Of a stretch of 64,000 nucleotides of DNA, positions 1 through 54,374 are shown in pieces. The notes below the pieces were generated by a model that was given only the letters and a program-made list of their open reading frames with translations, was not told the origin of the DNA and searched no databases. The DNA comes from Escherichia phage MIZ6, in sequence record OR192075.1, one strand, 5' to 3'. The first letter of the stretch is position 1, and each line of letters starts with the position of its first letter. The translations under genes were made by a program, and so were the position numbers.

Positions 1-1827
<1,827 letters not shown>

Positions 1828-1858
1828 CGATAATGCATAAAAAGATGAGGAAATTCTA

Positions 1859-3862
1859 ATGACTCTATTATCACCGGGTTTCGAAACGAAAGAAACTACT
1901 CTCTCCACTACCATTGTGCAATCTGCGACTGGTCGCGCTGCACTGGTAGGTAAATTCCAATGGGGTCCAGCTTTCCAGATTATTCAAGTAACTAATGAAG
2001 TTGAATTAGTTAATAAATTTGGTCAGCCGGATAATAACACCGCAGACTATTTCATGAGCGGGGCTAACTTCCTCCAGTATGGCAATGACCTGCGTGTTGT
2101 TCGTGTATTGAATAAAGAAAAAGCGAAAAACGCAACTGCCCTAGCTGGTAACATCGAGTTTGAAATCACAAACGAAGGTTCAAACTATGAAGTAGGCGAT
2201 ACCATCAAGATTAAACATAACCGTCAAGATATTGAAACGGCTGGTAAAGTAACTAAAGTTGATGGTGATGGTAAAGTTAAGGGTGTATTTATCCCAACTG
2301 GTAAAATTATCGCTCACGCTAAAGCAATCGGTGTATATCCAGAACTTGATGGCGGTTGGACGGCAGAGTTCACTTCTTCGTCAGGTAACGGTAGTGCGGC
2401 GCTGTCAGTAACTAAAATTGTTACTGATTCCGGTCTTCTGTTAACGGATCTGGAAACTTCCCGCGCCAATATCACAAATCAGACTTTCTTGACTAAACTC
2501 CAGAAGTATGATATGCCAGCGGTAAGCGCGATCTATGCTGGTGAGATTGGCAACTCGCTGGAAGTTGAAATTCTGGCACGTAGCGCGTTCAGTGGCGCGG
2601 TAGCACCTGAATTAACTATATATCCGTTCGGCGGAACTCGTGCCGCAGCACGCAACCTGATTCCATATGCACCGCAGAATGATAATCAATATGCATTTAT
2701 TGTTCGTCGCGATGGTGTTGTGGTAGAATCCTATGTACTGTCTACTCTGAAAGGGGATAAAGACGTATACGGCAATTCTATCTACATGGACGACTTCTTT
2801 GCTCGTGGTTCTAGCCAGTACATCTATGCAACCGCTCAAGGGTGGGTAGATGGTTTCAGTGGTATTATCTCTCTTGCTGGTGGTGTTTCTGCTAACGAAG
2901 CAACGACTGCTGGTGTTGGTGCTGATCCGTTCATCGGTGCGATGATGCAAGGTTGGGATCTGTTTGCTGAACGAGAATCTATTCATGTAAACCTGTTGAT
3001 CGCTGGTGCATGTGCTGGCGAAGGCGATGCGTTCTCTACCGTACAGAAACATGCTGTTTCCATCGGTGATGAGCGTCAGGATTGCTTAGTAATGGTTTCT
3101 CCGCCGCGTAGCACTGTTGTTAATATTCCGGTGACTACCGCAATTGATAACCTGATTGCATGGCGCGAAGGTTCAGGAAACTATAATGAAAACAACATGA
3201 ACATTAATACCACTTACGCGGTTATTGATGGTAACTACAAATATCAGTATGACAAATACAACGACGTAAACCGTTGGGTTCCGTTGGCTGCTGATATTGC
3301 TGGTTTGTGCGCTCGCACTGATGCTGTATCCCAGCCGTGGATGAGTCCGGCAGGTTATAACCGTGGTCAGATCATGAACGTGGTTAAACTGGCAATTGAG
3401 CCTCGCAAGGCGCACCGCGATCGTCTGTACCAGGCCGCAATTAACCCGGTAATCGGTGCTGGTGGTGAAGGGTTTATCCTGATGGGTGATAAAACCGCTA
3501 CGACTGTTCCTAGCCCGTTTGACCGCATTAACGTTCGTCGTCTGTTTAACATGCTGAAAAAGAATATCGGCGATTCAAGCAAATACAAACTGTTTGAAAA
3601 CAACGATAACTTTACTCGCGCTTCCTTCCGTATGGAGGTTTCGCAATATCTCAGCACGATTCGCTCTCTGGGTGGCATTTATGACTTCCGAGTACAATGC
3701 GACACCACGAATAACACGCCGGATGTAATTGATCGTAATGAATTTGTTGCTAGTATGTTCATCAAACCAGCAAAATCGATCAACTATATCATGCTCAATT
3801 TCACTGCTGTTGCAACTGGTGCTGATTTTGACGAAATTATCGGTCCAGCTAACCAGGCATAA
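1859..3862 (+). CDS. 18: Tail sheath protein gp18
   Basis: 667-aa ORF; N-terminus MTLLSPGFETKE and long conserved blocks match T4 gp18. Confidence 0.95.
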   Translation: MTLLSPGFETKETTLSTTIVQSATGRAALVGKFQWGPAFQIIQVTNEVELVNKFGQPDNNTADYFMSGANFLQYGNDLRVVRVLNKEKAKNATALAGNIEFEITNEGSNYEVGDTIKIKHNRQDIETAGKVTKVDGDGKVKGVFIPTGKIIAHAKAIGVYPELDGGWTAEFTSSSGNGSAALSVTKIVTDSGLLLTDLETSRANITNQTFLTKLQKYDMPAVSAIYAGEIGNSLEVEILARSAFSGAVAPELTIYPFGGTRAAARNLIPYAPQNDNQYAFIVRRDGVVVESYVLSTLKGDKDVYGNSIYMDDFFARGSSQYIYATAQGWVDGFSGIISLAGGVSANEATTAGVGADPFIGAMMQGWDLFAERESIHVNLLIAGACAGEGDAFSTVQKHAVSIGDERQDCLVMVSPPRSTVVNIPVTTAIDNLIAWREGSGNYNENNMNINTTYAVIDGNYKYQYDKYNDVNRWVPLAADIAGLCARTDAVSQPWMSPAGYNRGQIMNVVKLAIEPRKAHRDRLYQAAINPVIGAGGEGFILMGDKTATTVPSPFDRINVRRLFNMLKKNIGDSSKYKLFENNDNFTRASFRMEVSQYLSTIRSLGGIYDFRVQCDTTNNTPDVIDRNEFVASMFIKPAKSINYIMLNFTAVATGADFDEIIGPANQA

Positions 3863-3896
3863 TCAGTAAATTAGCATAGATTAAAAGTTAAATCAA

Positions 3897-3915
3897 GCGG
3901 GGAGAAGTTCCCCGC
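3897..3915 (+). other. GC-rich hairpin GCGGGG-AGAAGTT-CCCCGC between genes 18 and 19 (copy 1 of 2 identical)
   Basis: Perfect 6-bp stem, 7-nt loop; no T-run after it; identical 19-mer recurs at 4443..4461. Confidence 0.6.
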
Positions 3916-3935
3916 TCTATTAAGGAATATCAATT

Positions 3936-4430
3936 ATGGCACTCGATTTGAATGATATTACACGCGGTTTCGAGTCTGGCGATTTTGCTCGTCCTAACCT
4001 GTTTGAAGTTGAGATCCCGTATCTGGGGCAAAACTTTAAGCTGATGTGTAAGGCTGCGACTGTCCCGGCTGCTACCGTAGAAAAAATTGCTGTAGGCTAT
4101 CAAAACCGTAAAATTAACATCGCTGGCGACCGTGTATACGACGACTGGACCATCACTGTATTCAACGATGACGCACACAAGATCCGTGATGCTATCGTTG
4201 CATGGAGCGATCAGACACATGGCACAGGTTCGGCGATCACTGGTGCAACTCCTGCACAATATAAGAAACAAGCTATTGTTCGTCAACTTAACCGTAACAC
4301 CGAATCAACTAGCGAAAAAACATTGTACGGTATTTTCCCGACCAACGTTGGTGAAGTAACCCTCGATTGGGAACAAAACAACGAAGTTGAAACGTTTGAA
4401 GTTACTTTTGCTATCGATTGGGTAGAATAA
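3936..4430 (+). CDS. 19: Tail tube protein gp19
   Basis: 164-aa ORF directly after sheath gene; size and position as T4 gp19. Confidence 0.85.
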   Translation: MALDLNDITRGFESGDFARPNLFEVEIPYLGQNFKLMCKAATVPAATVEKIAVGYQNRKINIAGDRVYDDWTITVFNDDAHKIRDAIVAWSDQTHGTGSAITGATPAQYKKQAIVRQLNRNTESTSEKTLYGIFPTNVGEVTLDWEQNNEVETFEVTFAIDWVE

Positions 4431-7455: not shown

Positions 7456-8250
7456 ATGCTTAAAGAAATGCTGCTCGAAGAAGCAAAACAGATCACCGTA
7501 GACGTTGCTCTCGATGACCTGTTTGAATCCGTCGAACTGTCGCCGGAAGTAAAAGAAAATTTTGGTACTATCTACGCTCAGGCGGTAAAAGCTAATGCTG
7601 TTGCTCTGGCAGAAAGCCACATTGAAAAAATCGCCGCTAAAGCCGATGAACTGGTAGAATCAAAGGTCGAAGAAGCACGCACCGAGATTGAAACCAAACT
7701 GTACGAAGATGCAGATAAATTCCTGAATCACTTAGGCGCTAAATGGCTGGCAGAAAATAAAGAAGCCGTCACCCGTAATATTAAAGCGGATCTGTGCGAA
7801 TCCCTGATTGGTTCTCTGAAAGATGTTTTCGTTACTCACAATGTTGTAGTACCGGAAGAATCTGTAGACGTTGTTGCTGAACTTGACGAAGCACTCAAAG
7901 AAGAAAAAGAAAAAACCTCTGAACTCTTTGATGCCAAACTGCAACTTGAAAGCGAAATTCGTGGCATGAAGCGCGAACAAGCGATCAATGAAAGCACTCG
8001 TGATCTTTCCGATACTCAGAAAGAAAAAGTAACCGCGCTGATTGAAGGTCTGGAATATAGCGAAACTTTCGATAAGAAATTAACTGCAATTGTCGAAATG
8101 GTTGCTAAGAAAGAAGACAAACCAGCGAAGATTGAAGAATCACTAAATACTGATGCCGACAAGCTGAATGTTATTGCAGAAGCTGTCGAAGAATCAGAGA
8201 AAAAGGCAACTGTAGATTCCGGCGTATCCCGCTACCTGAATTTCATCTAA
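7456..8250 (+). CDS. 22: Prohead core scaffold protein gp22
   Basis: 264-aa acidic, helix-rich ORF between 21 and 23. Confidence 0.8.
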   Translation: MLKEMLLEEAKQITVDVALDDLFESVELSPEVKENFGTIYAQAVKANAVALAESHIEKIAAKADELVESKVEEARTEIETKLYEDADKFLNHLGAKWLAENKEAVTRNIKADLCESLIGSLKDVFVTHNVVVPEESVDVVAELDEALKEEKEKTSELFDAKLQLESEIRGMKREQAINESTRDLSDTQKEKVTALIEGLEYSETFDKKLTAIVEMVAKKEDKPAKIEESLNTDADKLNVIAEAVEESEKKATVDSGVSRYLNFI

Positions 8251-8268
8251 TGTAATTCAAATCTACTT

Positions 8269-8276
8269 TATAAATA
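8269..8276 (+). promoter_or_regulatory. Late promoter TATAAATA upstream of gene 23
   Basis: Exact TATAAATA 34 nt upstream of gene 23 ATG. Confidence 0.75.
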
Positions 8277-8309
8277 CTTTAGGTTAACAACAAACAAGGT
8301 TTAAAGAAC

Positions 8310-9908
8310 ATGAAAACTACCAAAGAACTGATGGAAAAATGGTCCCCGCTGCTGGAGAACGAAAAACTGCCGGAAATCGCAACTGCGTCTAAGCAGAAAC
8401 TGGTTGCTAAAATTCTGGAATCTCAGGAAGCGGATTTTGCTGTAGACCCGATCTATAAGGATGAAAAAGTTGTTGAAGCATTCGGTGGCTTTATCGCAGA
8501 AGCCGAAGTTGCTGGCGACCACGGTTATGACGCATCTCACATCGCGGCTGGTCAGACTACTGGTGCAATCACCAACGTAGGTCCGGCTGTTATCGGTATG
8601 GTTCGCCGTGCTATCCCTAACCTGATCGCATTTGATATTTGTGGTGTTCAGCCGATGAGCACTCCGACTAGCCAGATCTTTGCAATCCGTTCTGTATACG
8701 GTCCAGATCCGCTGGCAGGTGGCAATGCTCAGAATGTTCGTGAAGCATTCCATCCGATGTATGCACCTGATGCGTTCCATAGCTCTCTTGCTGCTAAAGG
8801 TGCAACTGTAGGTTCACCAACTGGTACTGCATTCGCTAAACTAACTCTCAGTACTCCGATTGATGCAGGTGATATTGTACATCACACCTTCGCAGAAACT
8901 GGCATTGCGTATCTGCAAAACGTTACCGCAGAACAAGTAACCCCGACCAAAGCTGGCAGCGAGTCCGAAGATGAAGTTGTCATGAAGCTGATGGAAGAAG
9001 GTAAACTGGCTGAAATCGCTTTCGGTATGGCGACTTCCATTGCCGAAATTCAGGAAGGCTTTAACGGTTCCAGCAATAACCCGTGGGCTGAAATGTCAAT
9101 GCGTATTGACAAACAGGTTGTTGAAGCGAAATCTCGCCAACTGAAAGCCCGTTACTCTATCGAAGTTGCGCAGGATCTGCGTGCTGTACACGGTATGGAT
9201 GCTGACGCTGAACTGAATGCTATCCTGGCTAACGAAGTTCTGCTTGAAATCAACCGTGAAATCGTTGACGTCATCAACTTTACCGCTCAGGTTGGTAAGA
9301 CTGGTATGACTCAGACCGTTGGTTCTAAAGCTGGTGTATTTGACCTGCAAGACCCGATCGATACTCGCGGTGCTCGTTGGGCTGGTGAATCCTTCAAATC
9401 TCTGATCTACCAGATCGACAAAGAAGCTGCTGAAATCGCTCGTCAGACTGGTCGCGGTGCTGGTAACTTTGTTATCGCTTCCCGTAACGTTGTAAACATT
9501 CTTGCTTCTGCTGATCAGGGTATCAGTCTTGCTATGCAGGGTGCTGCAAAAGGTCTGAATACCGACACCACTAAAGCTGTGTTCGCTGGTGTTCTGGCTG
9601 GTAAGTACAAAGTGTTCATCGACCAGTATGCTCGTCAAGACTACTTCACCGTAGGTTACAAAGGCGACAACGAAATGGATGCTGGTATCTACTATGCTCC
9701 GTATGTTGCTCTGACTCCGCTGCGTGCAACTGACCCGCAGTCTTTCCACCCGGTTCTGGGCTTCAAGACTCGCTATGGCATCGGCATTAACCCGTTTGCA
9801 GACAGCAAATCCCAGGCACCGTCCGCTCGCATCACCTCCGGTATGTTGAGCAAAGACAGCGTAGGTAAAAACGCATACTTCCGTCGTGTATGGGTTAAAG
9901 GTTGCTAA
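8310..9908 (+). CDS. 23: Major capsid protein gp23
   Basis: 532-aa ORF; typical T4 gp23 N-terminal propeptide region and conserved core blocks. Confidence 0.95.
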   Translation: MKTTKELMEKWSPLLENEKLPEIATASKQKLVAKILESQEADFAVDPIYKDEKVVEAFGGFIAEAEVAGDHGYDASHIAAGQTTGAITNVGPAVIGMVRRAIPNLIAFDICGVQPMSTPTSQIFAIRSVYGPDPLAGGNAQNVREAFHPMYAPDAFHSSLAAKGATVGSPTGTAFAKLTLSTPIDAGDIVHHTFAETGIAYLQNVTAEQVTPTKAGSESEDEVVMKLMEEGKLAEIAFGMATSIAEIQEGFNGSSNNPWAEMSMRIDKQVVEAKSRQLKARYSIEVAQDLRAVHGMDADAELNAILANEVLLEINREIVDVINFTAQVGKTGMTQTVGSKAGVFDLQDPIDTRGARWAGESFKSLIYQIDKEAAEIARQTGRGAGNFVIASRNVVNILASADQGISLAMQGAAKGLNTDTTKAVFAGVLAGKYKVFIDQYARQDYFTVGYKGDNEMDAGIYYAPYVALTPLRATDPQSFHPVLGFKTRYGIGINPFADSKSQAPSARITSGMLSKDSVGKNAYFRRVWVKGC

Positions 9909-49195: not shown

Positions 49196-51439
49196 TTACA
49201 GCTTGCAAGATGAGCACTCGCTAGAGTCTTCCGTACCATCTGCACCGTCGCGAACGTTCGCATAATACAGGGTTTTCAGACCGTAATATTGAGCAAACAA
49301 CATATCATCTAAAACATCAGCAATATCGACTTTACCCGTCTTATAAGTGCTTGGATCGTAGGATGTGTTGGAACTAATCGCCTGATCTACAAACTTCTGC
49401 ATGATCGCTGCCAGTGTCAGATAAGGCTTGTTACCTTTCTTGATCAGTGTCCAAAGCAGGTCAATAACATCAGCATTATTCTCTACGTTCGGAATAACCT
49501 GATTAAATTGCCCTTCTTTCGATCCTTTAACCGATACAATACCGCGAGGCGGTTCAATACCGTTTGTGCTGTTAGATACCTGAGAAGACGACTCACAAGG
49601 CATCAGAGCCGAAAGCGTACTGTTACGAATGCCATATTTTTTCAGGTCTTCGCGCAGTTCTTCCCAATCCATCTCATATACCGGATCAACCAGTTCATCT
49701 ACTGTCTTTTTGTACCAGTCGATAGGCAGTTCACCGCGACCATAACGTGTTTCGTGCATCAGTTCGCAAGCACCCTTCTCTTTAGCCAGTTGCACACTAG
49801 CCTTAATCAGAGCATATTGCAAGCGTTCAAACGTTTTATGCGTAAACTCGTTAGCGTCTTCATATGTGAAGAAATTATCCGCGAGATACGATGCAAAGTT
49901 AGTCACCCCAACACCCAGAGAGCGACGTTTTTTGGCTGTCAGAGCTTGCTCTACAGGATAATCCTGGTAATCTAACAGGTTGTCAAGTGCACGCACCATA
50001 ACCATAGCAATGCGTTCTACTTCTTCCATATTTTCGATATCAAAGTTTCCTAAAACATATGCTGCCAAAGTACATAGGCTGATCTCTGAATCATCACGAC
50101 CCATCGGTTTTGTAGGCAGAGCAATTTCACAACACAGGTTGGATTGTTTAATCGGTGCTACATTACGAATAAACGCCCCGTGATTGTTCATGTTGTCTGT
50201 GAACGTTGGGTAGATTCGACCAGTGTTAAAACGTTCAATTGCCACCGCTAAAAACAGGTCTTCGGCTTTAACACGAGTTTTACGAACACTCGGATCTTTT
50301 TCCAGTTTTTCGTAAAGCTGGCGGAAACCTTCCTCATCTCGGAAGTATAGATCCCACAACAAGCCACCTGCAACATCTGGACTAAACAGAGTAATGTAAT
50401 CCCGTTTAAGGAATCGCTCTACCATCAGGTTATTAATCTGTACGCCGTAATCAAGATGACGAATGCGGTTATCTTCCACCCCCTTATTGTTCTTTAACAC
50501 AATCAGACTTTCAAACTCTAAATGCCACATTGGGTAATAGAGAGTCGCCGCCCCGCCACGAATACCGCCTTGTGAGCATGACTTAACGGCAGTCTGAAAA
50601 TGTTTCCAGAATGGGATAACGCCAGTATGACGAACTTCACCATGCCCGATCTTAGATCCTTCCGCGCGAATCATGCCAGCGTTGATACCGATACCAGCAC
50701 GCTTGCTAATATACTTGATGATTGCATTTGCTGTTTCGTTGATGCCCTGCAATGAGTCATCACTTTCAATCACCACACACGAACTAAATTGGCGTGTTGG
50801 GGTACGCACACCTGCCATAATCGGAGTAGGCAGAGAGATTTGCTTATTCGCAACAGCATTATAAAAATCAATCACATGTTCAAGTCGATTTTCGGTCTCT
50901 TCTTGATGCAAGCACATACCGATCAGCATATACGCAAATTGCGGTGTTTCGATGATTTTCTTAGTGCTGCGATCCTGAACAAGATATTTCTCTTTTAACT
51001 GCATCGCACCAGCATAGGTCATTTTAAAATCAAGTTTATGGTCGATGAATTTCTCCAGATATTCCACTTCTTCACGGGAATACTTTTGCAGAATTTCGCG
51101 ATCATATTTTCCGATTGCAATATTACGCTCAATATGGCTATAAAAATCAATAGGTTGGAATTGACCGTATACTGATTTACGAAGCGCGAACATTGCAAGG
51201 TTACTTGCTACATATTGATAATCGGGTGTTTCTACCGTGATGTTATCTGCGGCGACCTTAATCAATACTTTCTGGATATCATTGGTAGACATACCTTCTG
51301 TCAGAAGTGGTTCAACCATATCAAACAATTCATATGGATCAACGTTATGACCTTCGGCTGCCGCTTCCAGAATTTTCATTACTTTTTCTTTTTCAAACGG
51401 AACAGTCAGACCGGAAGACTTAACAACATTTTTAATCAT
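49196..51439 (-). CDS. nrdA: Ribonucleotide reductase large subunit
   Basis: 747 aa; N-terminal ATP-cone and catalytic Cys/Asn/Glu blocks. Confidence 0.95.
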   Translation of the reverse strand: MIKNVVKSSGLTVPFEKEKVMKILEAAAEGHNVDPYELFDMVEPLLTEGMSTNDIQKVLIKVAADNITVETPDYQYVASNLAMFALRKSVYGQFQPIDFYSHIERNIAIGKYDREILQKYSREEVEYLEKFIDHKLDFKMTYAGAMQLKEKYLVQDRSTKKIIETPQFAYMLIGMCLHQEETENRLEHVIDFYNAVANKQISLPTPIMAGVRTPTRQFSSCVVIESDDSLQGINETANAIIKYISKRAGIGINAGMIRAEGSKIGHGEVRHTGVIPFWKHFQTAVKSCSQGGIRGGAATLYYPMWHLEFESLIVLKNNKGVEDNRIRHLDYGVQINNLMVERFLKRDYITLFSPDVAGGLLWDLYFRDEEGFRQLYEKLEKDPSVRKTRVKAEDLFLAVAIERFNTGRIYPTFTDNMNNHGAFIRNVAPIKQSNLCCEIALPTKPMGRDDSEISLCTLAAYVLGNFDIENMEEVERIAMVMVRALDNLLDYQDYPVEQALTAKKRRSLGVGVTNFASYLADNFFTYEDANEFTHKTFERLQYALIKASVQLAKEKGACELMHETRYGRGELPIDWYKKTVDELVDPVYEMDWEELREDLKKYGIRNSTLSALMPCESSSQVSNSTNGIEPPRGIVSVKGSKEGQFNQVIPNVENNADVIDLLWTLIKKGNKPYLTLAAIMQKFVDQAISSNTSYDPSTYKTGKVDIADVLDDMLFAQYYGLKTLYYANVRDGADGTEDSSECSSCKL

Positions 51440-51486
51440 ATTACCTCACTTCATATTTTAGCAGGAACAAGTTTATCCTCCATATT

Positions 51487-51502
51487 GGGGGCTTTCGCCC
51501 CC
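51487..51502. other. GC-rich hairpin GGGGGC-TTTC-GCCCCC between td and nrdA
   Basis: T-rich tail is on the plus strand, opposite to both flanking genes. Confidence 0.5.
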
Positions 51503-51507
51503 TTTGT

Positions 51508-52740
51508 TTATACTGCCATTTGAGCGGTGATCGCTGGATGGCTTTGATAGTTGTGAATTTTAAAGTCTTTCGGAGTCTTTGTCAATACCTCATCTAAAGA
51601 TTTAAATTCCGGCAACTCAATTGTTGGTTTATCAAACGGAACACGGCTTAACTGTTCCATAACTTGATCAAAGTGGTTTTTGTAAATGTGAGTATCTCCA
51701 CCAGAGAAAATCAGTTCTCCTACCTCAAGATCACACATTTTCGCTATGATGTGAGTTAACAGCGCATAGCTGGCAACATTAAAGGGCAAGCCCAAAAAGC
51801 TGTCTACGCTTCGCTGAAACCACATACAAGACAGTTTACCTTCATTGACGTAGAATTGCACGAAAGGATGACATACACCCAATACAGCATTATGTGTTCC
51901 TTGTACGTTCCATGAGTCAATGATGATACGTCGATCCGTTGGATTGTTTTTAATTTGTTCAATCACGTTTTGTAACTGGTCTTCCCAAATCTTCGGGCGA
52001 TAGACATATTCTTCATCGTCTTTAGTGCTCGATGTGTCTACGTCCATACTAGCAAAGATCGTGGTATCTGGTGCTAAAATATCCCCACCCAGATAATCAC
52101 TATCAAGTAGATAACCGAAATAACCATCATCTACCCATTCCTGGAATCCCCACAAGCAATATGCATCATTAACAAAATTAGATTGAGTCTTCCAGTGATC
52201 TGCTACTAAGAATTGATTATATTCAGAATCAAACTCTTCATAACGCATACCACGCCAGATAGCACATAAACGGTCTTCTGTGTCGTTGGTTGGCGTAAAG
52301 TCTTCTACCCACGGGTGTTTAAATGTATGTGTATATTTGCTCTTAACGCGCTTAATTTTGATTTCACCGTGTGGATGAATCGGTTTGCGTCGCCATGCCA
52401 TACCATACATATTGCCGACATTATAACCATTGAATCGCAAAGGATTCTTTTCTTTCATATCAAGACAGTTGCCGCGCCAAATGTCGAAGGCTTCTTCGTC
52501 AAACTTTCCGCGTGTAATTTCCTGTAAGCGACGGCGGTCAAGTGATCCCTCCATAAACCATAGCAATTCGCCAATTACAGAGGCTGTAGCCATCTTTTTA
52601 GTGGTCAGTAACGGAAACCCCTTGCTTAAGTCAATTCGCATCTCTGCGCCGAATTTAGAGAGCGTACCTACCCCCGTTCGGTCTTCACGAGGCCAACCGT
52701 TATCAAGAACATCACGCAATAGTTTCAAATATTCTTTCAT
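51508..52740 (-). CDS. td: Thymidylate synthase with ~135-aa in-frame insertion
   Basis: NPTDRRIIIDSWN, VCHPFVQFYV, GGDTHIYKNH (Asn retained); 410 aa versus ~265-290 typical. Confidence 0.85.
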   Translation of the reverse strand: MKEYLKLLRDVLDNGWPREDRTGVGTLSKFGAEMRIDLSKGFPLLTTKKMATASVIGELLWFMEGSLDRRRLQEITRGKFDEEAFDIWRGNCLDMKEKNPLRFNGYNVGNMYGMAWRRKPIHPHGEIKIKRVKSKYTHTFKHPWVEDFTPTNDTEDRLCAIWRGMRYEEFDSEYNQFLVADHWKTQSNFVNDAYCLWGFQEWVDDGYFGYLLDSDYLGGDILAPDTTIFASMDVDTSSTKDDEEYVYRPKIWEDQLQNVIEQIKNNPTDRRIIIDSWNVQGTHNAVLGVCHPFVQFYVNEGKLSCMWFQRSVDSFLGLPFNVASYALLTHIIAKMCDLEVGELIFSGGDTHIYKNHFDQVMEQLSRVPFDKPTIELPEFKSLDEVLTKTPKDFKIHNYQSHPAITAQMAV

Positions 52741-52981
52741 CCCACATCACCTTTTTCTTGTTGATTGCTTTCTTACGCAGTTTTGCTACTGTCTCGTCAA
52801 TATCGATAAAGACAACGCCACGGTCGAATACAGTAGCAGGTCTTGAGATATCGCTATTTTCTTGCACAGGAAGCCATGATGCGCTCGCTTCATCATAGAG
52901 ATATTGTAAACCGTAATAATCTACGGCTACTGCGTAGTTTTCACTGGTAGCCGTCCATAATTGAATAATACCGACTTTCAT
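52712..52981 (-). CDS. Hypothetical protein (90 aa from ATG 52981)
   Basis: ATG overlaps upstream stop (TAATG). Confidence 0.4.
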   Translation of the reverse strand: MKVGIIQLWTATSENYAVAVDYYGLQYLYDEASASWLPVQENSDISRPATVFDRGVVFIDIDETVAKLRKKAINKKKVMWDERIFETIA

Positions 52982-53073
52982 TATTGTTCCCGTCCGCAAT
53001 GTAAGCACCGACTACCAGCAAACATTAAAGATTCACCACAATGTTTGCACTCATAATCTGTCAGAATTTTCAT
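52981..53073 (-). CDS. Tiny Zn-ribbon protein (30 aa)
   Basis: MKILTDYECKHCG ... CLHCG, two CxxC pairs. Confidence 0.3.
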   Translation of the reverse strand: MKILTDYECKHCGESLMFAGSRCLHCGREQ

Positions 53074-53659: not shown

Positions 53660-53989
53660 TCAAATCAGTTTAAAGAAGTTTTCGTTTACATTTTCTTCTG
53701 TGATTGCTGTCTTAAATTCTTGACCGTTATCCGGTGTGATGAAATAACGGTCAGAATAATCACGAAAACGTTTTAAGTGAGATACCCCAACATTAACACC
53801 ATTTTCCCAAAAACGAAAGGTAATCATTTTTGGTTCATATCGATAGTCGCTGGTTAACACAGTACCATCACCGCGACGGGCTTCATAAACCGTAATACAT
53901 TCACGATTAGCGGCTTTAAGGCATTCTTCAATAGTGCCGCACGAGATAATACTTACTTTTTCATCTACGATTTGTTCTACAGTCCACAT
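53660..53989 (-). CDS. Hypothetical protein (109 aa)
   Basis: SD AGAGGATTAT before ATG; promoter cassette upstream. Confidence 0.5.
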   Translation of the reverse strand: MWTVEQIVDEKVSIISCGTIEECLKAANRECITVYEARRGDGTVLTSDYRYEPKMITFRFWENGVNVGVSHLKRFRDYSDRYFITPDNGQEFKTAITEENVNENFFKLI

Positions 53990-54020
53990 AATATAATCCT
54001 CTCTTTGTTTTGATGTTTGT

Positions 54021-54048
54021 ATTATACACTATTGCGTTGCGCTGTCAA
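54021..54048 (-). promoter_or_regulatory. Early promoter cassette (TTGACA-16-TATAAT)
   Basis: -35 overlaps stop of upstream gene. Confidence 0.5.
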
Positions 54049-54374
54049 CCTTTTTGTTCCATGAAAAGCGGTGCTGTTTCTTCTTTCAGTTTAATAACTA
54101 GCGCGGAAACTTCATCAAGAAAATCTTTTTCCATATGAGCAAGCATTGATTTAGAATCTTTGATGACTTTCAAAGAATATTCACTTAGATTTCCTTGTCC
54201 TAACAATAATGCAGGATACACACTATGTGGGATCTCGATTTCATGATATTCGCTCATATTATAATATTTGTGAATTTTTAAATCTATATTTCTTCGTTGT
54301 ACGTCCACATCAGCAATGACATACAGAAGTTCGATTTTATCACTTTTCTGGGAAAGGGTAGCATTCAAAAACAT
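54045..54374 (-). CDS. Hypothetical protein (109 aa)
   Basis: SD CGGAGGATTAA before ATG. Confidence 0.5.
   Translation of the reverse strand: MFLNATLSQKSDKIELLYVIADVDVQRRNIDLKIHKYYNMSEYHEIEIPHSVYPALLLGQGNLSEYSLKVIKDSKSMLAHMEKDFLDEVSALVIKLKEETAPLFMEQKG

Follow-up and report, generated by a model that had tools for sequence, protein, structure and literature searches.

We analyzed the td gene of Escherichia phage MIZ6 in a window of 64,000 nucleotides (sequence record OR192075.1) and found that it encodes a thymidylate synthase (TS) carrying, inside one of its loops, a domain related to homing endonucleases. The gene occupies positions 51508 to 52740 on the minus strand, and the list of open reading frames (ORFs), Pfam, NCBIfam and PHROG agree on a ThyA-type TS of 410 amino acids (aa) plus stop; NCBIfam and PHROG both call this product thymidylate synthase, and the gene is annotated as td in RB49, Phi1 and other phages. 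The source is an RB49-like T4-type coliphage (Krischvirus) with the usual gene order gp32-frd-td-nrdA, and its Td is 100% identical to that of phages Sf20, MIZ2 and others and 99.5% identical to that of RB49. The Pfam model PF00303 (Thymidylat_synt) matches Td over its full length in two stretches, above the curated cut-off (E 1.1e-84). In a phmmer search of the PDB, aa 1-82 of Td aligned with residues 1-82 of E. coli ThyA, and aa 254-410 aligned with residues 110-264 (2e-47 for this C-terminal part). The N-terminal part of the synthase (aa 1-125; 52366 to 52740, minus strand) extends up to the loop ending in YGMAWRRKPIHPHG and aligns with ThyA 1 to about 103. The C-terminal part (aa 251-410; 51511 to 51990, minus strand) contains the catalytic Cys290 and the residues that bind deoxyuridine monophosphate and folate, as judged from the ThyA alignment and its invariant columns. 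The catalytic and binding residues R21, R270/R271, C290, R310, S311, D313, N321, H351 and Y353 all fall in invariant or nearly invariant columns, the E. coli counterparts checked being R21, R126/R127, C146, R166, D169, N177, H207 and Y209. By its profile match and catalytic residues, Td is a complete ThyA-type TS, which agrees with the preliminary description of this locus, made from the sequence alone, of a 410-aa TS with all core motifs.

The extra length of Td lies all in one place. In multiple alignments of Td with E. coli ThyA and 32 other TS, it falls between W116-R117, which are invariant across 33 TS, and D254-Q255, in the loop that reads WPTPDGRHIDQ in E. coli ThyA. The spacing between these two pairs is 136 residues in Td versus 5-34 in eight insert-less TS, giving a net insertion of about 125 aa (aa 126-250; 51991 to 52365, minus strand). 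Because ThyA aligns with Td only on both sides of this segment in the phmmer search, the insertion is one block and not several loops. The preliminary description had placed a single insertion of about 135 aa at 52008-52422, which corresponds to aa 107-245; it was right about the single in-frame block and covered most of the insert, but its coordinates were shifted by about 20 codons upstream. Its remark that the insert is rich in Trp, Tyr and acidic residues also holds: the insert has 4.0% W, 7.2% Y, 12.8% D and 7.2% E with a net charge of −12, compared with 2.5% W, 2.5% Y, 6.3% D and a net charge of −1 for the TS core. The GC content of the insert (0.397; 0.352 at third codon positions) is only slightly below that of the core (0.423 and 0.414), so there is no sign of a recent import, and the six-frame ORFs of the window hold no second homologue of the module that could be a donor copy. 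The insert is present in all 58 phage genomes that have td at 90% identity or more (Krischvirus, including RB49, Phi1, JSE and ECD7), so it is neither an assembly artefact nor a chance event.

The insert alone was used as a tblastn query. Beyond Krischvirus, it matched TS genes of jumbo phages of E. coli and Klebsiella (UE-S1, 2e-13; KP13-7, 1e-12), a gene of Vibrio phage D181 annotated as "HNH endonuclease" (3e-6) and, weakly, free-standing "HNH endonuclease" genes. The UE-S1 Td (517 aa) and the D181 protein (477 aa, of the TS family) both carry a longer insert in exactly the same loop. The UE-S1 insert in turn matched PHROG families of HNH endonucleases (4e-32, 6.5e-25 and 9e-21) and sequences in 1306 phage records. 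When six RB49-type inserts were compared by hhalign with five free-standing genes including ICP1 gp59, similarity was found over 68 columns (probability 94%, E 1.5e-7), and all 25 TS inserts compared with the same five genes gave a probability of 99.8% and E 1e-29. ICP1 gp59 is one of the three founding proteins of the IPA-HNH homing endonucleases, the others being gp115/116 and gp209, a His-less, HNH-like phage family named by Barth, Dunham and Seed (2023; PMC10448857); its HNH-like domain is too divergent for the Pfam model HNH_3 and is usually followed by an AP2 domain (PMC10448857). The core of the insert aligns with the Y..W..M..RCY ... TV..W..F.NF motifs of these genes. At the level of sequence profiles, the homology of the insert is to the N-terminal domain of IPA-HNH homing endonucleases, which is HNH-like but His-less. 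Neither the insert nor its free-standing relatives are represented by a Pfam or NCBIfam model, and a sequence-profile search of the PDB with the insert returned nothing. Membership in the I-HmuI type was considered and is not claimed, because hhalign found no similarity between the inserts and I-HmuI, though MAFFT lines up the motifs.

The free-standing relatives occupy the classic places of homing endonucleases: ICP1 gp59 and alia gp039 lie after the DNA polymerase gene, and the D325 gene lies between primase and polymerase. Among the free-standing relatives, the one closest to the long TS inserts, Yersinia phage fPS-9 g047 (178 aa, no AP2; 1507-2043 of locus L004), is situated between two ORFs annotated as terminase or "DNA packaging". 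This site looks like a terminase gene split by an endonuclease gene.

Embedded modules occur in a long and a short form. The long inserts (about 195-285 aa), which are found in the E. coli and Klebsiella jumbo phages, Vibrio phage D181 and many metagenomic phages, consist of an N-terminal SH3-like beta domain, a helical core leading to two strands and a helix, and a small helix-turn-helix-like module after "LNGGG". The short inserts (127-145 aa) are without the N-terminal beta module, the C-terminal module, one loop and the final helix. This shortening occurred at least twice, once in the RB49-type clade and once in P0009/P0013 inside the jumbo-phage clade. The motifs shared with the IPA-HNH family are Y..W..M..RCY, TV..W..F.NF and LDKD....YSP.TC.F.....N. 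The D-K-D ... N signature was intact in 68 of 75 long embedded modules and 79 of 88 non-TS proteins, compared with none of eight short inserts; the loop Tyr was present in 73 of 75 and 87 of 88, respectively, whereas six of eight short inserts had Leu or Ile. Since the best 150 matches of the profile search described below are biased to well-scoring, hence intact, copies, the fractions for the long and non-TS forms may be inflated, but the contrast with the short forms is not. Of 19 long inserts, 17 have a net charge of +2 to +18, the exceptions being P0014 (−1) and P0020 (−5); in six RB49-type inserts it is −11 to 0.

The signature of Td itself reads D-S-D...L-A...T...D, where the family has D-K-D...Y-S...C...N, so that substitutions have occurred at five of seven positions (K to S, Y to L, S to A, C to T and N to D). 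At the positions of the His-Me finger catalytic residues, the RB49 insert has Ser at D-x with no His, Leu at the loop Tyr and Asp for Asn. The remnant of this putative His-Me-finger-like motif lies at aa 211-235 (52036 to 52110, minus strand; LLDSDYLGGDILAPDTTIFASMDVD), where the motif table gives xLDKDYYGSNxYSPDTCxFxxxxxN for the intact homologues. The C-terminal module of the long inserts is deleted in Td, and Pfam finds no AP2 or other DNA-binding domain in the insert. By sequence comparison, the insert is thus related to a homing-endonuclease family and has lost the signature residues and accessory modules of that family.

The structure of full-length Td was predicted with AlphaFold2 (AF2) from an alignment of 33 sequences, with a predicted local distance difference test score (pLDDT) of 94 and a predicted template modeling score (pTM) of 0.92. 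Blocks of the insert scored 88-98, a confidence like that of the core, except for aa 171-180 at 73. The predicted insert comprises two long strands (residues 119-130 and 245-253), four helices and a short hairpin. The N-terminal stalk strand GEIKIKRVKSKY (aa 125-136; 52333 to 52368, minus strand) overlaps the first of these strands and contains the x-I-x-I-x-R-K pattern conserved in 25 inserts, and the C-terminal stalk strand EEYVYRPKIWE (aa 243-253; 51982 to 52014, minus strand) continues into a TS helix from D254-Q255. The two strands presumably pair in the model as a beta ribbon or stalk carrying the domain, and the high pTM suggests a fixed position of the insert on the TS. The helical core (aa 156-207; 52120 to 52275, minus strand; DRLCAIWRGMRYEEF ... 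HW..F.NF ... NDAYCLWGFQEWVDDGY) covers most of the predicted helices 153-170, 181-193 and 199-204 (pLDDT mostly above 90) and is the part that aligns with the IPA-HNH genes. Short strands at 210-213 and 228-231 coincide with the motif remnant, and the helix that follows them in the long-insert model is missing. The only lower-confidence loop of the insert contains EYNQ (aa 173-176; 52213 to 52224, minus strand), a 12-nt in-frame indel that is gapped in the Phi1 and P0002 genes, is polymorphic among relatives and separates the 410-aa RB49-type from the 406-aa Phi1-type alleles; the long inserts have a longer loop here ("RVYNPRKNH"). Foldseek, run on the long-insert model against the PDB, found no significant match; for the N-terminal beta module there was only noise of the Tudor/SH3 type. 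As this search, the PDB profile search and the hhalign comparison with I-HmuI were all negative, the predicted fold is a lead and not a proof. It had been proposed that the insert is a domain with its own function; the confident model supports an independently folding domain, but a function of its own is not demonstrated, since the signature residues and DNA-binding modules are gone and purifying selection indicates that the domain is maintained, not for what purpose.

To place the insert among other TS genes, the full-length Td was searched against an index of 5.8 billion proteins, which yielded 25 clusters of long TS (401-613 aa), and a profile of the TS inserts was searched against 1.84 billion cluster representatives, of which 13,664 matched at E 0.001 or better. 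In 58 of the best 150 of these 13,664, the module lies inside a TS, complete in 50 and partial in eight, and 88 are proteins other than TS. TS genes with an embedded module are therefore common in metagenomes, accounting for at least 58 of the best 150 cluster representatives. Named groups with an embedded module number at least four: Krischvirus, Asteriusvirus, Vibrio phages D181 and D69, and Tenacibaculum phage PTm5. All five genomic contexts retrieved were phage-like, including one from a contig of a "bacterial" metagenome-assembled genome. Whether the insert corresponds to a known TS subfamily extension had been raised as an objection; none was found in the literature searched, and the insert instead defines a large undescribed TS subfamily. 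No recognizable host domain stands beside the module in ten long non-TS matches, and TS therefore looks like the specific host.

Several of these proteins have further peculiarities. P0125, P0128, P0130-P0133, P0142, P0154 and P0165 are non-TS proteins of 430-720 aa in which the module is internal or duplicated (two to six matched stretches), with no partner domain recognizable by Pfam. The TS proteins P0019 (613 aa) and P0245 (739 aa) have, in addition to the module, an N-terminal extension of about 100-130 aa, and in several representatives, among them P0137, P0139 and P0202, the C-terminal part of the TS is split by a further gap of 15-35 aa. In Vibrio phage D181, the coding sequence labelled "HNH endonuclease" (2644-4077 of locus L001; the same in D69) encodes the 477-aa protein of the TS family in which the module is embedded. 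The TS core of this protein has diverged (GSFYN in place of GLPFN; weak Pfam match, 1.9e-47), so that the protein may be a different pyrimidine-modifying enzyme.

With few exceptions, the embedded copies sit in one and the same loop, and their junction strands follow the pattern x-I-x-I-x-R-K ... Y-R-P/Q-x-I-x-x-D-Q. In the TS of PTm5 (527 aa; 1608-3191 of locus L007), the module lies in a different loop, flanked by IWRDW and YGVQW; this points to an independent insertion. Further downstream in the PTm5 protein, another stretch of about 45 aa, unrelated to the module, is inserted between the catalytic Cys region and MYQRS. The presence of the module is patchy: the flanking TS sequence (extein) of P0024, which has the insert, is 79-81% identical to the insert-less P0027. 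Across 75 embedded copies (2775 pairs), extein and insert identities are uncorrelated (Spearman 0.015), and in some pairs the insert is closer than the extein, for example 65% versus 46%. These sequence identities suggest movement of the module between td genes, which is not proven because fast-evolving exteins could yield the same pattern.

We suggest that the insert of Td is probably a trimmed and inactivated remnant of an IPA-HNH-type homing endonuclease. An endonuclease element would once have entered td in frame, at a surface loop that tolerates insertions. The long chimeras are plausibly still homing endonucleases that cut insert-less td alleles, and we infer that the long embedded modules are present or past active endonucleases homing into the td site that encodes WR...DQ. 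In the RB49 lineage, both flanking DNA-binding modules and the last core helix would have been deleted, most signature residues replaced and the domain turned acidic. The insert would be translated within the TS and removed by neither RNA nor protein splicing. In the predicted fold, it makes a compact knob of alpha/beta type that sits on a beta stalk beside an intact TS core, and purifying selection now maintains it.

Selection was estimated by the Nei-Gojobori method as the ratio of nonsynonymous to synonymous substitution rates (dN/dS, omega) for seven Krischvirus genes. Comparisons within Krischvirus gave dN/dS values of 0.12-0.37 in the insert and 0-0.08 in the core. When td was compared with the P0002 gene, which is 87% identical, dS was 0.59, dN 0.081 and omega 0.137 in the insert (binomial p 3e-9 against neutrality), and omega was 0.096 in the core. 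Among T4-like lineages with extein identities as low as 62%, the reading frame is preserved without frameshifts, and so is a length of 127-140 aa. On these substitution patterns, the insert is under purifying selection. In the helical core, W45, W66, F72 and D75-D87 (insert numbering) do not vary among the six RB49-type inserts. Trp, Phe, Tyr, Leu, Pro and Gly make up most of the residues that are invariant among the short forms; these residues look fold-determining, because they are also conserved in the free-standing relatives.

The reason for retention is less certain than the origin and inactivated state of the insert. We put at roughly even the chances that folding and stability of the TS came to depend on the insert, so that only a precise deletion could remove it. 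A less likely explanation, and on balance a rather doubtful one, is that an insert of the same origin was exapted to a new non-nuclease role, for example as a docking surface in the complex for deoxynucleoside triphosphate synthesis, as a regulator of TS activity or stability, or in protection of the td allele. The protection idea follows from the consideration that the insertion destroys the target site of intact embedded endonucleases, and therefore its precise loss would be punished in mixed infections; Asteriusvirus phages, which by their sequences hold intact embedded endonuclease modules, infect the same host species as RB49. A role of this kind would also fit the dN/dS of the insert (0.14) near the core value, the preserved length and frame, the high model confidence and pTM, and the strongly conserved block DAYCLWGFQEWVD. 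However, the invariant residues are mostly aromatic, hydrophobic, Pro or Gly, as in the free-standing homologues, which points to fold maintenance rather than a new site; the net charge varies among the short forms from −11 to 0, in-frame trimming is ongoing, as seen in the EYNQ indel, no partner or activity is known, and the immunity idea is purely inferential.

It is very improbable that the insert retains homing-endonuclease activity, or at least sequence-specific DNA binding, inside the TS. Its homology to a homing-endonuclease family and the purifying selection acting on it would be expected in such a case, but the replacement of five of seven signature positions, the deletion of the helix after the two strands and of both flanking DNA-binding modules, and the net charge of −12 speak against it.

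Equally improbable is the reverse direction, in which the insert would be an old accessory domain of TS and the free-standing genes derived from TS-embedded ones. The junction strands conserved in nearly all embedded copies do suggest one old origin for the main insertion site. However, the non-TS homologues are far more numerous and diverse, judging from the 13,664 representatives and 1306 phage records above, and they have the architectures (AP2, NUMOD-like) and locations typical of homing endonucleases; moreover, PTm5 holds the same module in a second TS loop, and close TS pairs differ in the presence of the module.

Self-removing elements were considered as well. A group I intron is ruled out by the continuous ORF of 410 codons and by an Rfam scan of 51300-52900 (E up to 1), which gave no family except a chance microRNA match; the insert is a single in-frame block that is not spliced out of the RNA. 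No Hint or intein domain was found by Pfam at E up to 10 in the insert, the whole proteins or the longer homologous inserts. The ends of the insert in Td are ...PHG|EIKIK... and ...YRPK|IWEDQ, and the 25 aligned inserts have no conserved Cys/Ser/Thr or His-Asn at either junction. With no Hint domain, no junction nucleophiles and a predicted fold that is not Hint-like, a typical intein is rejected, so that both negative statements of the preliminary description, on intron and intein, were borne out. An unconventional intein or other self-removing element, leaving a mature TS without the insert, would match the mini-intein-like size of about 130 aa and the intein-like, in-frame placement at a conserved site of a nucleotide-metabolism enzyme, but we give it the smallest chance of all, given these Pfam and junction results, a predicted fold that is helical on a two-strand stalk with no Hint horseshoe, and an AF2 model that makes the insert an integral part of the TS.

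The neighborhood of td was inspected in the window and in related phages. An ORF of 98 aa starting from GTG (52712-53008, minus strand) overlaps the start of td by 29 nt; it is annotated with 89 aa in RB49-like records (RB49ORF236c) and is conserved in all relatives fetched. The td-nrdA spacer is a bare 68 nt in the window (51440-51507), and phage 011D4 has a DNA methylase gene there (1576-1830 of locus L010); in the L015 contig, a DNA methylase gene follows nrdA (7587-8426). The gp32-frd interval contains only two 109-aa ORFs in the window (53660-54374), and in close relatives a gene of 340-405 aa with a CapR domain (T5orf172-type, homing-endonuclease-like; L014 1671-2693, L015 1476-2693). 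An HNH_3 gene is present in L015 as well, on the upstream side of gp32. The gp32-frd interval adjoining td is a variable hot spot of mobile genes.

To our knowledge, homing endonucleases have been thought to survive in essential genes only by way of self-splicing introns or inteins, or by lying between genes. In the TS genes described here, the endonuclease module is just one more piece of the host enzyme, with neither intron nor intein, and this arrangement is widespread. The series from intact to trimmed modules is a natural experiment in which a selfish insertion becomes a fixed protein domain, and it reveals where a classic drug-target enzyme tolerates an insertion. RB49-like and Asteriusvirus phages of E. 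coli provide a testable system for endonuclease-mediated competition between co-infecting phages. Several TS genes with embedded modules are also mis-annotated, such as the D181 gene. We tentatively propose, while considering it less likely than not, that the TS-embedded IPA-HNH is a further lifestyle of homing endonucleases beside the intron-borne, intein-borne and free-standing ones: an unspliced internal domain of an active enzyme that would home into one td loop site and decay in place to a permanent "mini" domain, the RB49 knob perhaps persisting as td immunity to the intact jumbo-phage versions.

Several known systems resemble parts of this arrangement. The T4 td group I intron with I-TevI concerns the same host gene in the same phage family and is also a homing-endonuclease element. 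However, it is removed at the RNA level and its endonuclease belongs to another family, whereas the Td insert is translated and there is no intron; we take the T4 intron to interrupt the gene at a more downstream site, around GLPFN. Loop extensions of TS, such as the small-domain insert of L. casei and the eukaryotic inserts, likewise occupy tolerant surface loops (5-34 residues in insert-less TS), but they are short, unstructured or small and have no homology to mobile-element proteins. The RB49 insertion site presumably corresponds to the second eukaryotic TS insert. Among the closest known systems are also PacI and the His-less His-Me finger nucleases, group 20 of Jablonska et al. 2017 (PMC5714182).

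The IPA-HNH genes (PMC10448857) share with the Td insert the homology of the core domain, the motifs and the association with essential genes of nucleotide metabolism and replication. They differ in being free-standing, of variable presence and equipped with a C-terminal AP2 domain, whereas the Krischvirus insert is embedded in frame, fixed in all 58 records, without AP2, truncated and devoid of the signature. Barth et al. (2023; PMC10448857) do not mention thymidylate synthase or in-frame embedding. In-frame fusion without a splicing element has been described for LAGLIDADG ORFs joined to the fungal mitochondrial rps3 gene (Gibb and Hausner 2005, as cited in PMC7902536). From that citing account, the coding sequence of a homing endonuclease is joined to a host protein as in Td, although with another endonuclease family, an organelle genome and another host protein, and the likeness is one of general arrangement rather than detailed architecture. 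A mobE-type insertion that splits nrdA of phage Aeh1 into two genes (Friedrich et al. 2007, as cited in PMC10448857) is, as outlined there, similar in that an HNH-family gene lies in a T4-like nucleotide-metabolism gene with no intron or intein and the host function is retained; however, two polypeptides are formed there, compared with one continuous polypeptide in Td. Thus, an unspliced in-frame fusion and an HNH insertion in a split gene are already known, and an IPA-HNH module inside TS, together with its reduction series, is apparently undescribed; our searches of the literature on the RB49 td insertion, in-frame TS and HNH, and IPA-HNH found no description of either. A further parallel is that of inteins and mini-inteins. 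In both cases, a block from a selfish element lies in frame in a conserved enzyme, full and endonuclease-less forms exist, and the distribution among related host genes is sporadic. The difference is that the Td insert is without a Hint domain or junction nucleophiles and is predicted to stay in the mature protein. By this analogy, the RB49 form may be regarded as a decayed end state, mini-intein-like but without splicing.

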